Shown piece by piece: positions 2,098 through 50,051 of a stretch of DNA of 64,000 nucleotides. How positions within the stretch are numbered: position 1 is the stretch's first letter; each line of letters begins with the position of its first letter. This DNA is from Salinispira sp. (GTDB taxonomy: Bacteria; Spirochaetota; Spirochaetia; DSM-27196; Salinispiraceae). The stretch lies in NCBI GenBank assembly GCA_965602015.1, contig OZ271918.1, forward strand, positions 320,001 to 384,000, in the 5' to 3' direction. The notes below the pieces were generated by a model. It saw nothing but the letters and a program-made list of their open reading frames with translations, did not search any database and was not told the origin of the DNA. Both the position numbers and the translations under genes were made by a program.

Positions 2098-2124
2098 TGC
2101 CCCCAAAACAGCTGATTTAAATCT
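2098..2124 (+). repeat. Solo copy of the IS/MITE end motif
   Basis: tgcccccaaaacagctgatttaaatc, identical to the reverse complement of the right end of the MITE at 4328-4470. Confidence 0.85.
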
Positions 2125-4327: not shown

Positions 4328-4470
4328 TGCCCCCAAAACAGCTGATTTTCAGGCTGTAAAATGCTCTATGATAAGCAGAAACGGGCATTTTTCTCGAGCG
4401 CGCGATTGACGGCGCTTAATTCCAATCCTGTGAACAGATTACATGATTTAAATCAGCTGTTTTGGGGGCA
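4328..4470. mobile_element. MITE (143 bp) with terminal inverted repeats shared with the IS at 39534
   Basis: tgcccccaaaacagctgattt ... aaatcagctgttttgggggca form a perfect IR; non-coding; between convergent genes. Confidence 0.9.
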
Positions 4471-11310: not shown

Positions 11311-11394
11311 CTACCTGCTACTATGACCTCAGCCAGTCATTCCGTCAAATTCGGGATGTAGTTTTCGGGGCATATCTGAAAGCGGTGCCTCCCC

Positions 11395-11547
11395 GCAAGA
11401 GTTTTCAATGTTCTATTACAAAAATTCTGCAAATCGGTTTTGTCCGAGTCATATCTCCGCCATCCACGTGGCATGAAAATGTCTTTCCAGGGGTGTCGCA
11501 ATCACTTTGCACAGCCTCGTATTCGCGCTGTAGCCCCAAAAACGCGC
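11395..11547 (-). ncRNA. Predicted bridge/seek RNA in the 3' non-coding end of IS copy 1
   Basis: Contains UUUUUGGGGC and AAGUG flanking a hairpin, matching the two halves of the target, and AGAUAUGA matching the predicted circle junction; transcript boundaries unknown. Confidence 0.75.
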
Positions 11548-12600
11548 TTACCCCTGTCTGGACAAACCCGCTAATGCAGGATCTTTGTAATGCTGTTCTT
11601 TCTGCAATATCCAAAATATTGCTTCTGCTAAGTGCCGTGCCACAGAGATTATAGCAACCTTATGATTTCGTTTAGTACGAACTCTCTTGTAGAGTTTTAC
11701 CGTATGTCGGTTCGCCCAATTTCTTTGATTAAGACAGGTTACATTAGCTGCTTCAGTAAGTGCCCACTTCAAGTATCGATTACATGCTTTCGATGTTCGA
11801 CCATAATGAGTTTTACCTCCGCTCGAGTGAACGCGCGGCGTTGTACCACAGTATGATGCAAAATGTTCAGCGGTCTTAAAGCGATGTATGTCTCCAATTT
11901 CATGCACAATGACTGCGCTGAGAATAAATCCGATCCCGGGAATGGATTTCACCAACTTCATTTCAGCATTTTCATCAAACGCTTCATGCATTCGTTGTTC
12001 GCAGTCGGTGATAGATTGCTTAATAAACGCGAGATTATCGAGCTTGAGTTTCATCATGGTGCGGGTATGCTCGGGGAGTTTTGGCATTACCTTCTTCATG
12101 GCTTCTGTACCTGCTTTTCCGAACAGATCGCTCACATCATTGAATCGAAACCCATATTTCTCGAACCCGGCATGAATTTGGTTCTTTTCACGTATCAACT
12201 CCTGAACGAACTGCATCCGGGTTCGATAGAGTTCTCGTTTATCACGTAATTCTCCTGGTGGAATCCACACAGTAGGCAGTGTGCCTGTTTTTTGAAGTTT
12301 ATTGAGACCTTCAGCATCGAGTTTGTCAGTTTTGTTAAACATGGCCATCATCAATTTTGACTTACCGGCATGAACCAGCAAGGGGTTCATGCCGGCCTCC
12401 TCAATCTCATCCACGATCCAGTACCAACTTCCGATCGTTTCAAGTGCGACTTCCTGTCCCGGCTCAAATTGTTGGAGGAAATCACGAATACACCCGTGAG
12501 AATGTTCTATGCGCTGTGAGGATTTCCTTCCTTTTTCGTCCTCAATTGCAGCCACGGTATACCGTTTATGGCTGTCGAGGGATATAATAATACTACTCAT
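11548..12600 (-). CDS. IS110-family DEDD recombinase/transposase
   Basis: SLDSHK, ALET and KTDKLDA (DEDD RuvC-like), SIPGIG, and SSGG catalytic serine; RBS ggaggagg. Confidence 0.96.
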   Translation of the reverse strand: MSSIIISLDSHKRYTVAAIEDEKGRKSSQRIEHSHGCIRDFLQQFEPGQEVALETIGSWYWIVDEIEEAGMNPLLVHAGKSKLMMAMFNKTDKLDAEGLNKLQKTGTLPTVWIPPGELRDKRELYRTRMQFVQELIREKNQIHAGFEKYGFRFNDVSDLFGKAGTEAMKKVMPKLPEHTRTMMKLKLDNLAFIKQSITDCEQRMHEAFDENAEMKLVKSIPGIGFILSAVIVHEIGDIHRFKTAEHFASYCGTTPRVHSSGGKTHYGRTSKACNRYLKWALTEAANVTCLNQRNWANRHTVKLYKRVRTKRNHKVAIISVARHLAEAIFWILQKEQHYKDPALAGLSRQG

Positions 12601-12707
12601 TTGGTTGTCCTCCTCCGGTATTTAATATAGACCCTGACTGGCAGGATCTCGGGGGAGGCACCGCTTTCATACCATCACTATCTAATTTTATATTCGCACG
12701 GGCTTTA

Positions 12708-22294: not shown

Positions 22295-22421
22295 TGCCCC
22301 GAAAACAGCTGATTTTCTGGTGGTAAAACACCATGCGAGAATGATAAACCTAGTTTTTCGACTTTACGCGCAGTAGACTGGGTGTAATTCCTATCTCAAT
22401 TGCCGGTATCTACATATTGAA
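22295..22421 (+). mobile_element. Truncated MITE (one IR plus internal sequence, second IR missing)
   Basis: tgccccgaaaacagctgattttc, then taaaacac..t.cgagaatgat.aacc.tagt shared with the reverse complement of 49908-50051. Confidence 0.8.
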
Positions 22422-38527: not shown

Positions 38528-39532
38528 GTGCGCGTCTGCCTTGTTCAGTTCGATCCCGCCTGGGAAAACCCGGAAGAAAACCGAAGACGGATACGAGCAT
38601 TAGTTGACCGGCTTTCCGGGATTGCAGCGGTGTCCCCACAGCCGGCGGATATGATAATTCTGCCGGAGATGTGCCTCACGGGGTTTACCATGAATCCTCA
38701 TGCACACGGTGCCGCTGAAAGTTCTACCGATGACTCGAGCGGCGATACTGACGGCGTAATTGTTGCCGCGACCGGCGCGACTGTCTCGGCCGATGGAGCA
38801 GCTGCTGATCACACGACCGATGCGACAACTTACGGCGCGACTGTCTCGGCCGATGGCTCGGCCGATGGAGCAGTTGCTGATCACGCGACCGATAGCGCAA
38901 CATACGGCGCGACCGATAGCGCAACATACGGCGCGACCGATATCGCGTTGGATGCCCGGGGCTTTTTTTCCCAGTGTGCCCGTTCACTGAACTGCGCAGT
39001 GGTGGCGGGATACGGAGAGTTGGACCCCGACGGAATGGCGTCGAACAGGGCGGGCGCCTGGAGCTCAAGCGGAAAGTTGCTTGCCGATTATGTGAAAAAT
39101 TATCCCTTCAGTTATTCTGGAGAAGACCGGGTTTACCGGGCCGGGAAGGACGCCTCGATGCTCAGCATCGGCGGTCTGCGCTTCGGCCTGTATATTTGCT
39201 ACGATCTGCGATTTCCTGAACATTTTCGGAGGCTTGCAGGTCAGGTTGATTGTTATCTGGTCGTGGCCAATTGGCCCCTGTCACGCATGGCCCACTGGCG
39301 CAGCCTTCTGGTCGCCCGGGCGGTGGAAAACCAGGCCTGGGTTATTGGCGTGAACCGCCGGGGGAAGGACGGCAACGGAATCCGTTACCCCGGGGTTTCC
39401 GTGGTTGTTGATCCCATGGGCGAAATATGCGCAGAGGGAGGAGAAGAAGATGAGCTTGTTTGGGCAGACATCAGCAAATCCTTCGTCGATGAGACCCGGG
39501 CTCGATTCCCCTTTCTGAATGACCGGAAATAA
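38528..39532 (+). CDS. Carbon-nitrogen hydrolase (nitrilase superfamily amidase) with a low-complexity insertion
   Basis: LPEM, YVK and ICYDLRFPE (E-K-C triad); ANWP and ARAVENQ motifs. Confidence 0.9.
   Translation: MRVCLVQFDPAWENPEENRRRIRALVDRLSGIAAVSPQPADMIILPEMCLTGFTMNPHAHGAAESSTDDSSGDTDGVIVAATGATVSADGAAADHTTDATTYGATVSADGSADGAVADHATDSATYGATDSATYGATDIALDARGFFSQCARSLNCAVVAGYGELDPDGMASNRAGAWSSSGKLLADYVKNYPFSYSGEDRVYRAGKDASMLSIGGLRFGLYICYDLRFPEHFRRLAGQVDCYLVVANWPLSRMAHWRSLLVARAVENQAWVIGVNRRGKDGNGIRYPGVSVVVDPMGEICAEGGEEDELVWADISKSFVDETRARFPFLNDRK
38774..38942 (+). repeat. In-frame nested tandem repeats (60/72/24 bp units)
   Basis: ggcgcgactgtctcggccgatgg x2 and gcgaccgatagcgcaacatacggc x2. 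Confidence 0.9.
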
Positions 39533-39568
39533 TATGAAGTGCCCCCAAAACAGCTGATTTTCCCCTCC

Positions 39569-40702
39569 TCAGGCCACCGCATAATCGGGAAGATCGATCT
39601 TCAGCGCACTCACCGGTGTCTTCCAGATCCGATGCCAGGTCTTCCATTGGCTGATGTCCAGCACCAGATGATGAACGAATGCCCGCTGTGTAAACATCCG
39701 TTTTACCAACATCAGTACCCGCCTTCGGTCAAACCCCGCAACCTCACCATGGCTGATATCGTTACGTCCGTTTATCCGATACGGCTTGAGCAGGTTATGA
39801 TAGGCGATGTAGATCATCATCCGCTCCATGCTGTTGTTCACCGATTTTGACCACTGCACACTCTGGCGGACATGACAGGATTGATCCTTTCGTATCTCCC
39901 GATCCAGGTAATTCACCGGAAACAGGGGGTTCTCAGTGGTCCTCACTACCCTCGATGAGGTTCGGTGATGGATAACCCGCCCTGCATTTTCCAACGCCGC
40001 CCAGTCCCGGTGAGCGAACAGCTCACGGCGGTATTCGAGTTTTTCATCGCTCAAGAGATAGCATGGCTTCTTCGATGAATAAGCCCTCCACCTGGGAAGA
40101 ATGGTGTTTATCACATCCCGGAAAGATCGCGCAATTTGTCCCCCTGCAATAGGATACCGGCGATTGAGCTCATCGCGCCGGCGCTTTTGCGCGGGGGTCA
40201 TCCGCCCTTTGCGCCGCATCTGCGCATAGTCGCAGGCATAGACAACCTGGCTGTCGCAACCCACCGCGAGGGTGAAGTTGTTCGGCCAGTATTGGCTGTG
40301 CACAAAGCTTTCAAACCCATCAACGGCAATATCCTCATCGATTGTATGATCATTCAATAACTGGGCCATGGCAGCGATTGCCTGACGGGACAATCGGCTC
40401 AGCCGATTGAGAATGACCTTGTCGGTGACATAAAACTCCCGGGCAATGTCGCGGATGCCGGAAGCCGAGTTGATCGAAGAGAAGATGCGCCGGTAATCGA
40501 GGCGATGATGTGCGCGATAATCGAGGTGAAACGCGCTTTCGCAGAAGTATCGACGGCAATGCTTACAGCGATAGCGCTGTGAAGAACCGAGGCGGCGACA
40601 GTGATAGTGGCCGTTTCGGACAAACCAGCATCGGCTTGATTCTCTGTCGCGATGATGCTGAGAGCAGTCCGAGTACGGACAGAATCGGGGGTAAAATGCC
40701 AT
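39569..40702 (-). CDS. Putative transposase (Zn ribbon + HTH + DDE-like domain)
   Basis: CP...C...G....QRYRCKHC zinc ribbon, GIRDIAR HTH, AVDGFESF, LSDE and YHNL.KPYR; the ORF fills the space between the IRs. Confidence 0.82.
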   Translation of the reverse strand: MAFYPRFCPYSDCSQHHRDRESSRCWFVRNGHYHCRRLGSSQRYRCKHCRRYFCESAFHLDYRAHHRLDYRRIFSSINSASGIRDIAREFYVTDKVILNRLSRLSRQAIAAMAQLLNDHTIDEDIAVDGFESFVHSQYWPNNFTLAVGCDSQVVYACDYAQMRRKGRMTPAQKRRRDELNRRYPIAGGQIARSFRDVINTILPRWRAYSSKKPCYLLSDEKLEYRRELFAHRDWAALENAGRVIHHRTSSRVVRTTENPLFPVNYLDREIRKDQSCHVRQSVQWSKSVNNSMERMMIYIAYHNLLKPYRINGRNDISHGEVAGFDRRRVLMLVKRMFTQRAFVHHLVLDISQWKTWHRIWKTPVSALKIDLPDYAVA

Positions 40703-40808
40703 GGTAATCTCCTATGAGCGGTAATCGTGTCATAGAAGACTACTGGCAAAAGAGTTATGTTGATTCGATCAGCTGTTTTGGGGGCATATCTGAAAGCGGT
40801 GCCTCCCC

Positions 40809-40961
40809 GCAAGAGTTTTCATTGTTCTATTACAAAAATTCTGCAAATCGGTTTTGTCCGAGTCATATCTCCGCCATCTACGTGGCATGAAAATGTCCTT
40901 CCAGGGGTGTCGCAATCACTTTGCACAGCCTCGTATTCGCGCTGTAGCCCCAAAAACGCGC
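40809..40961 (-). ncRNA. Predicted bridge/seek RNA, copy 2
   Basis: Same guide-like segments as 11395-11547; three substitutions seen, none in those segments. Confidence 0.75.
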
Positions 40962-42014
40962 TTACCCCTGTCTGGACAAACCCGCTAATGCAGGATCTTT
41001 GTAATGCTGTTCTTTCTGCAATATCCAAAATATTGCTTCTGCTAAGTGCCGTGCCACGGCGATTATTGCAACCTTATGATTACGTTTAGTACGAACTCTC
41101 TTGTAGAGTTTTACCGTATGTCGGTTCGCCCAATTTCTTTGATTAAGACAGGTTACATTAGCTGCTTCAGTAAGTGCCCACTTCAAGTATCGATTACATG
41201 CTTTCGATGTTCGACCATAATGGATTTTACCTCCGCTCGAGTGAACGCGCGGCGTTGTACCACAGTATGATGCAAAATGTTCAGCGGTCTTAAAGCGATG
41301 TATGTCTCCAATTTCATGCACAATGACTGCGCTGAGAATAAATCCGATCCCGGGAATGGATTTCACCAACTTCATTTCAGCATTTTCATCAAACGCTTCA
41401 TGCATTCGTTGTTCGCAGTCGGTGATAGATTGCTTAATAAACGCGAGATTATCGAGCTTGAGTTTCATCATGCTGCGGGTATGCTCGGGGAGTTTTGGCA
41501 TTACCTTCTTCATGGCTTCTGTACCTGCTTTTCCGAACAGATCGCTCACATCATTGAATCGAAACCCATATTTCTCGAACCCGGCATGAATTTGATTCTT
41601 TTCACGTATCAACTCCTGAACGAACTGCATCCGGGTTCGATAGAGTTCTCGTTTATCACGCAATTCTCCTGGTGGAATCCACACAGTAGGCAGTGTGCCT
41701 GCTTTTTGAAGTTTATTGAGACCTTCAGCATCGAGTTTGTCAGTTTTGTTAAACATGGCCATCATCAATTTTGACTTACCGGCATGAACCAGCAAGGGGT
41801 TCATGCCGGCCTCCTCAATCTCATCCACGATCCAGTACCAACTTCCGATCGTTTCAAGTGCGACTTCCTGTCCCGGCTCAAATTGTTGGAGGAAATCACG
41901 AATACACCCGTGAGAATGTTCTATGCGCTGTGAGGATTTCCTTCCATTTTCGTTCTCAATTGCAGCCACGGTATACCGTTTATGGCTGTCGAGGGATATA
42001 ATAGTATTACTCAT
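40962..42014 (-). CDS. IS110-family DEDD recombinase/transposase
   Basis: 350 aa, intact DEDD and SSGG motifs, about 8 substitutions versus copy 1. Confidence 0.96.
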   Translation of the reverse strand: MSNTIISLDSHKRYTVAAIENENGRKSSQRIEHSHGCIRDFLQQFEPGQEVALETIGSWYWIVDEIEEAGMNPLLVHAGKSKLMMAMFNKTDKLDAEGLNKLQKAGTLPTVWIPPGELRDKRELYRTRMQFVQELIREKNQIHAGFEKYGFRFNDVSDLFGKAGTEAMKKVMPKLPEHTRSMMKLKLDNLAFIKQSITDCEQRMHEAFDENAEMKLVKSIPGIGFILSAVIVHEIGDIHRFKTAEHFASYCGTTPRVHSSGGKIHYGRTSKACNRYLKWALTEAANVTCLNQRNWANRHTVKLYKRVRTKRNHKVAIIAVARHLAEAIFWILQKEQHYKDPALAGLSRQG

Positions 42015-42111
42015 TTGGTTGTCCTCCTCCGGTATTTAATATAGACCCTGACTGGCAGGATCTCGGGGGAGGCACCGCTTTCATACCATCACTTCAAAAA
42101 TAATCCCGGCG

Positions 42112-45213: not shown

Positions 45214-45236
45214 TGCCCCGAAAACAGCTGATTTTC
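45214..45236 (+). repeat. Solo copy of the IS/MITE end motif
   Basis: tgccccgaaaacagctgattttc. Confidence 0.85.
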
Positions 45237-49907: not shown

Positions 49908-50051
49908 TGCCCCGAAAACAGCTGATTTAAACCCTCTAACATTTATATCAGACAGGATTTAACCGCTGTCCACCGCATGCAGAGGTAAATACTATGGTTA
50001 ATCATTCTCGTACCGTGTTTTAGCACTCGCAAATCAGCTGTTTTCGGGGCA
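49908..50051. mobile_element. MITE (144 bp)
   Basis: Perfect IR tgccccgaaaacagctgattt; internal similarity to the 22295 and 4328 copies; offset direct repeat cgttttt. Confidence 0.9.

Follow-up and report, generated by a model that had tools for sequence, protein, structure and literature searches.

The window analysed here, the 64,000-bp stretch G000:C1:320001-384000 of a closed 3.87-Mb genome (G000), holds two copies of an IS1111-type IS110 element, one of which interrupts the terminal repeat of an IS1-like transposon. The locus raises the question of how an insertion sequence comes to be placed at a single base of another element's end, and with what effect on that element. The reading preferred here, at a probability of about 85%, is that the element lands at one exact base of the end-repeats because its predicted guide RNA spells that site. 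It would be an IS1111-type bridge recombinase element with a guide RNA programmed for the tip of the repeat that ends the IS1-like element and a set of MITEs.

The IS1111-type element and its insertion sites

The element is 1305 bp long, counting one CA core, and lies on the minus strand of the window at 40787..42091 (copy 2) and 11373..12677 (copy 1). Both copies have CA at each junction, as the earlier note had reported, followed by CT. Copy 2 carries a gene (40962..42014, minus strand) for a DEDD recombinase of 350 aa with the domains PF01548 and PF02371 and a score of 224.6 bits against NF033542 (cut-off 140). Residues D9, E54, D92 and D95 and the SG at 260–261 were present in all nine intact copies, and the predicted DEDD (RuvC-fold) domain and C-terminal Tnp domain with its catalytic serine place the protein in the IS110 family. 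It is only distantly related to the recombinase of IS621 (E 7.6e-12), and its length is within the 330–350 aa reported for IS1111 group transposases (PMC11187229). Perfect subterminal inverted repeats of 18 bp lie on the minus strand at 42066..42083 (left, 6 nt inside the core) and 40791..40808 (right, 4 nt inside the core). Non-coding stretches of ∼75 nt and ∼175 nt precede the recombinase start and follow its stop, respectively, a long non-coding region downstream of the gene being a feature of the IS1111 group. Taken together, the perfect repeats, the short left end and the ∼175 nt after the stop indicate an IS1111 layout (PMC11187229, PMC11208160). The subterminal repeat is one base above the range of 7–17 bp given for the group in PMC11208160, and 12 nt (6 + 4 nt and the 2-nt core) lie between the perfect repeats compared to 10 nt published, the terminal extensions being given as 7 bp on the left and 3 bp on the right (PMC11187229); the left extension is longer than the right, as published. 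Relatives had the same 6+4 layout, which was partly imposed by the search design.

Ten copies were found in the genome, nine full-length at 98.7–100% identity and one broken by a 1310-bp element. Nine of the ten are independent insertions; the remaining junction is not, because it is part of a tandem duplication (G000:C1 3399668-3402532) in which a copy was repeated with ∼255 bases of flank and the second junction shares only the TG core. The 1310-bp element is itself present in seven identical copies (G000:C1 1707043-1708352 and six more), one of which cuts the IS1111 copy, with a loss of 319 bases, while one cuts a MITE end and one adjoins another MITE end.

All nine independent insertions are at AG|TG|CCCC on the transposase strand and in a single orientation, which bears out the description of a site-specific, IS1111-type element, and they differ in their outer flanks. 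Seven are in the repeat that ends the IS1-like element (family A), with three at ends of full-length host elements, three at MITE ends and one at an unpaired end; one is in a sister family (family B), and one, window copy 1, is alone. The last, flanked by an HD-domain gene on one side and an acyltransferase gene on the other, is similar to the family A repeat for only about 12 bases from the core inward; beyond these the two sequences part, and no partner end is present. It thus shares a short motif and not a recognisable terminal repeat. The earlier proposal that both window copies occupy the same position of the same motif therefore holds for a short motif common to both, while copy 1 is not in a recognisable terminal repeat. 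Likewise, the idea that the element parasitises the ends of an IS/MITE family fits eight of the nine insertions, in family A or B, but not copy 1, at a lone guide-matching site. Among all genomic copies, the one independent site outside the repeat ends had the matching AGTGCCCCNAA motif. Removal of copy 2 in silico restored the exact reverse complement of 39535-39558, as had been claimed.

The IS1111 copies have a pS of 0.02 and include three identical pairs, compared to a pS of 0.11 and no identical pair among the host copies. By these values the IS1111 copies are the younger, consistent with a recent arrival in a genome that was already seeded with targets. Co-transposition of host and IS1111, considered for two copies at the same host end, was ruled out: the two sites have different tips and flanks, and their hosts share 97.1% identity. 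A base-level empty allele was not obtained, the matching intergenic regions of G097, a related genome, being too diverged.

The target repeat and the elements that it ends

The body and intact end of the host element occupy 39535..40786 (minus strand); its other end, 40768-40786, is split by IS1111 copy 2, beyond which lie the displaced outer 5 bases of the tip (42092..42096). A 9-base stretch resembling a target duplication (39526..39534, plus strand) is 7/9 identical to a partner stretch beyond the displaced tip (42097..42105, plus strand). The host transposase of 377 aa (39569..40702, minus strand) has a zinc-binding N-terminus, an HTH and an RNase H-like core. It matched no Pfam family at E 0.001, reached 35.3 bits against the IS1 profile NF033558 (cut-off 100) with only residues 40–139 covered, and was not related to IS110 profiles (probability 0.2); no DDE domain was among the 25 families listed for 40 homologues of the protein. 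The nearest named Atlas cluster was DDE_Tnp_IS1 at 0.92, and the fold of a structural model (pLDDT 90.2) matched retroviral integrases, Mos1 and MuA. Homologues with names were from Spirochaetales. D128, D219 and N264 were invariant in 40/40 aligned proteins, and N264 is probably at the third catalytic position. The IS1595 group has a D-D-N triad.

Direct repeats were scanned over 81 offset-length settings in 44 paired elements, one of 45 being left out with its end cut by another IS. The best setting was 9 bases, 5 outside TG (z 6.7), and the signal was weaker with the tip set 0–4 or 8 bases outside TG. At least 7/9 bases agreed in 10 of the 44 elements, compared to 0.9 in shuffles; none was perfect at 9 and one was perfect at 8. 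The tip consensus was [T/G]GnA[G/C], with G as the first base in 44/126 ends. Strong conservation is limited to the inner two of the five tip bases, and one site compared across species can be read in more than one way; the true tip is therefore placed between 2 and 5 bases beyond the point of insertion. The outer three bases vary even among 99%-identical host copies.

The host resembles IS1 in its zinc-binding N-terminus, HTH and integrase-like core, in a likely tip five bases before TG, a register that fits the ends GGnnnTG reported for IS1 and IS6 (PMC6807381), and in a signal of ∼9-base direct repeats in AT-rich DNA, IS1 elements making target duplications of 8–9 bp. It differs in having no Pfam match, an Asn that is invariant where the third catalytic residue probably stands, variable outer three tip bases and imperfect duplications. 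From these sequence features it is classed as IS1-like, not as a member of IS1, and as part of an unnamed spirochaete family. Elsewhere in the window, a carbon-nitrogen hydrolase gene has in-frame repeats of 12, 24, 60 and 72 bases (38773-38931), which account for a protein of 334 aa compared to 276 aa in its G097 counterpart.

The family A repeat, whose inner part is CAGCTGAT, had 126 genomic matches at ≤2 mismatches: 22 paired host ends, 60 ends of 30 MITE pairs, 8 in four palindromes and 36 unpaired. Its 18-base motif had 124 matches at ≤1 mismatch, and a reversed control none. The repeat ends 12 IS1-like elements, the twelfth copy having a one-base deletion at one end, and 30 paired elements of ∼143 bp. 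The latter are classed as MITEs, being non-coding and of fixed short length (141–145 bp from TG to CA in 29/30) with the host's terminal repeat; their mobility is only presumed, and the median identity of their interiors was only 44%. Two unoccupied MITEs with the same terminal repeat are in the window, of 143 bp (4328..4470) and 144 bp (49908..50051), along with unpaired copies of the repeat on the minus strand at 2098..2115, 22295..22312 (where 107 nt resemble the MITE at 49908) and 45214..45231. Four palindromes of 42–47 bp, REP-like in form, join two repeat ends directly (G000:C1 201919-201960, 400647-400688, 2681483-2681524 and 2356764-2356810). Family B had 18 matches and has TGCCCC in common with family A; one copy abuts a host-family fragment of 37% identity.

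AGTGCCCCNAA occurred 82 times, compared to 2.5 expected under an order-4 Markov model fitted to the genome. In the IS-free genome, 73 occurrences were in family A, 8 in family B and 1 elsewhere, so that 81/82 fall in ends of these two families. All nine insertions are within these 82 sites, the single non-family site included.

Among 99 genomes of the order, 2 had the family A repeat, 49 the host protein family and 7 relatives of the recombinase (E 1e-40); G097 had 63 matches to the repeat. Different host-family elements, facing opposite ways, adjoin the same terminator-like flank at G096:C1 ∼1282550 and G097:C185 ∼3730, and the matching flank at G000:C1 ∼2096420 has a short end-like remnant without an element.

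These data bear on whether the repeat is still mobile. It may be REP-like and largely resident, with a domesticated transposase and old miniature copies, in which case IS1111 would use an abundant intergenic repeat, like IS621 and ISPa11, and there would be little host mobility to block. The 12 host genes are all open, none identical, mosaic, and have a pN/pS of 0.10 at a pS of 0.11; the fixed length and divergent interiors of the MITEs, the lack of a perfect 9-base duplication in all 44 pairs, the palindromic end-to-end forms and the host homologues flanking the same site in G096 and G097 point the same way. However, the host family is multi-copy at unrelated sites (12 in G000, 12 matches in G096, 14 in G030), the 9-base direct-repeat signal 5 bases outside TG is significant, and the protein has an integrase-like fold. 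The element is moreover missing at a matching G097 locus, and the elements at the site shared by G096 and G097 are in opposite orientations. A largely resident repeat is possible, though on the unlikely side.

Predicted guides and their covariation with targets

Under the preferred reading, RNA-guided insertion, the right end of the element should encode the site. The segment 40902..40970 (minus strand) is predicted to fold into a stem with an internal loop, a fold weak by itself (z -1.74, 12/200 shuffles equally good) with a layout that is kept in relatives. On the 5' side of the loop, the right target guide UUUUUGGGG (40948..40956, minus strand), followed by C, can pair with the core G and with CCCC[C/G]AAAA inward of the core; a U faces the C/G position, giving a mismatch at C-type ends. 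On the 3' side, AAAGUG (40917..40922, minus strand), that is, the left target guide AAAG and the core UG, repeats the tip and core. Two putative donor guides lie beyond on the same strand, the right one at 40888..40894 with four Watson-Crick pairs, two wobble pairs and one mismatch, and the left one, AGAUAUG (40864..40870), matching the element's right tip and core exactly. The predicted guides thus match both target strands with the top-strand complement first, the order reported for IS1111 seekRNAs (PMC11187229). An Rfam search gave one match at chance level (E 0.98), and a scan for promoters and terminators was also at chance level.

Occupancy in the genome was compared with these guides. 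At six of the seven occupied ends in family A, ≥3/4 positions agree with the left guide, compared to 33/126 of all ends (p = 0.0013, post hoc), and all occupied ends are among those with CT outside the core (7/75 vs 0/51 ends, p = 0.04). The family B site scored only 8.5/13. Measured against a bare 8-base seed, the 8/9 insertions in repeat ends were not a significant enrichment over a background of 81/118. The sole non-family AGTGCCCCNAA site is occupied and has no inner repeat, which implies that a short guide match is enough and that the inner repeat is unneeded; an element reading ∼13–15 bases would use any matching site.

Single-protein scans of contigs from genomes and metagenomes gave no recombinase relatives, and an alignment-based scan gave 80 loci. 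At 42 of the 80, the two ends and the loop could be identified; together with the element studied here, these provided 34 distinct guides. At ∼47–56% identity, the relatives keep the scaffold and have changed guides. Right-guide pairing was 4.88/7 compared to 2.73 when shuffled and left-guide match was 3.47/4 compared to 1.42, with 0/5000 shuffles reaching either value, a test that overstates significance because the relatives are kin. The element's own guide scored 6 on its own target and the best of 33 foreign guides scored 4. The left donor guide was exact in 34/34 and follows three donor variants. The right target guide is 9 nt here and 7 or 8 nt in relatives, and two relatives with other right guides, L101 and L134, also have AAAG as left guide. 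Since the guides match the target and covary with it, targeting is best explained by RNA guidance over ∼13–15 bases rather than by the element recognising transposon ends as such.

Placement by protein recognition of the repeat, by the host transposase or by recombination among copies would need no guide. Such a route is made conceivable by ISPpu10, for which a structural gate beyond base pairing has been reported (10.64898/2026.03.19.712850), and by the one junction in ten that arose by duplication. It is very improbable given the differing outer flanks of the nine insertions, the occupied non-family site without inner repeat and the covariation of guides with targets.

Sixty flanking frames of the relatives contained one IstB, two DDE_Tnp_1, one DDE_3 and one IS110 beside them. 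L080 directly follows an IS21 istB gene and lies in short repeats; L100 and L109 are next to DDE_Tnp_1 genes, and L090 and L101 share flanks or guides with L080/L100/L109. To the eye, the flanks of L108, L126 and L138 resemble arms of tRNA genes; with ARAGORN, no complete tRNA was detected at the 42 reconstructed sites of relatives, the rejoined sites of L108 and L126 included.

No second case of the pairing of IS1111 with the host repeat was found in G096, G097 or the metagenome contigs. The junction pattern had nine matches in the contigs; tblastn detected neither an IS110 gene nor a host gene at any of them, and they are attributed to chance. Four contig sets from a single sample had no such junction, a result that carries no weight either way. 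G097 (83% complete, 780 contigs) had no PF02371 match, which in so incomplete an assembly does not imply absence, and no IS1111 tip was seen at ends from 13 of its repeat loci. G096 had five PF02371 matches, 25–35% identical to this recombinase; convergent targeting there was ruled out, the three elements with visible ends lying outside the host repeats of G096.

Probable effect on the host and relation to known systems

By analogy with the published IS1111 and IS621 mechanism, the element would excise as a circle, whose joined ends (TTGCGG, 18 nt, TATGAT) are predicted to form a promoter from which the right end would be transcribed into bridge RNA. The recombinase would then join donor and target at the common TG core, without true duplication. 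Insertion would split the outer 2–5 bases off the host end and probably disable it: it puts an A beside the core, where only 2/126 natural ends have one, so that the split end is probably dead. Immobilisation of the host is plausible; one end is split in 3 of the 12 full-length host copies.

A stronger version holds that the autonomous host IS is the specific target, which the element would suppress by RNA guidance, the MITE insertions being spill-over. The left guide AAAG matches 19/22 paired host ends at ≥3/4 positions compared to 14/104 other ends (p = 5e-11), and the split host copies and the two bases left outside the core after insertion (TA on the transposase strand, with the rare A next to the core) would suit such a role. 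Yet host ends show no significant excess of occupancy (3/22 vs 4/104, Fisher p = 0.10), host tips are related to each other and the AAAG matches are not 22 independent events, L101 and L134 share AAAG with other right guides, and hitchhiking or safe-harbour use would give the same pattern. Suppression of this kind is unlikely. Extended to the clade, it is a doubtful conjecture: the guide would be fitted to tips of the autonomous elements in an as yet undescribed family of spirochaete transposons, marked by Asn for the third acidic residue, variable outer tips and fixed-length divergent MITEs; IS1111 would be an RNA-guided brake that splits the bases that the transposase must cut; and the clade would have been re-programmed repeatedly to other mobile-element ends.

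IS4321 and IS5075 are reportedly IS1111-type elements that insert in the terminal repeats of Tn21-type transposons. The element described here is like them in being IS1111-type with subterminal repeats and in using one position inside another transposon's terminal repeat, but its host is a small IS1-like element with MITEs, not a Tn3-family transposon, and its site is 2–5 bases from the tip. In Coxiella, 20/21 copies of IS1111 are reported to split one end region of QMITE2, a MITE of 150–190 bp with direct repeats of 7–11 nt (PMC5896051). The target there is a GTAG REP inside the MITE, and the account in PMC5896051 names no autonomous partner, whereas the repeat here also ends 12 full-length elements. 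ISEc21, in turn, targets IS3-family genes (PMC11187229). With the seekRNA systems of ISEc11, ISKpn4 and ISPa11 (PMC11187229) and the bridge RNA of IS621 (PMC11208160), the element shares a non-coding region after the gene, a top-strand guide before the bottom-strand guide, a circle-junction promoter (here predicted), a shared core and donor-binding segments. It differs from them in its 18-bp subterminal repeat and its 12 nt between repeats at the junction instead of 7+3; its right target guide, at 9 nt, is longer than in its own relatives.

The earlier note had regarded the pairing as undescribed. Literature searches, as distinct from ISfinder and the supplementary target tables of PMC11187229 and PMC11208160, found no paper on this IS1111/IS1-like pairing; the habit itself has been published, for IS4321/IS5075 and for IS1111 in QMITE2. 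Insertion of IS1111-type elements into the ends of other mobile elements is thus a known principle, of which this pairing is a clean new example.

The locus provides a well-resolved natural guide-target pair: a single closed genome contains nine insertions, one site outside the repeat families and more than 100 unoccupied ends that match the guides to varying degrees. The graded matches across ends make the mismatch tolerance of an IS1111-type bridge RNA readable from the genome. The recombinase belongs to a clade in which the nearest relatives, among the matches listed, are ≤60% identical. The system could also show, in a simple test, if an insertion of this kind halts the host, and it brings to light a host transposase family without a Pfam model that is present in 49 of the 99 genomes of the order.
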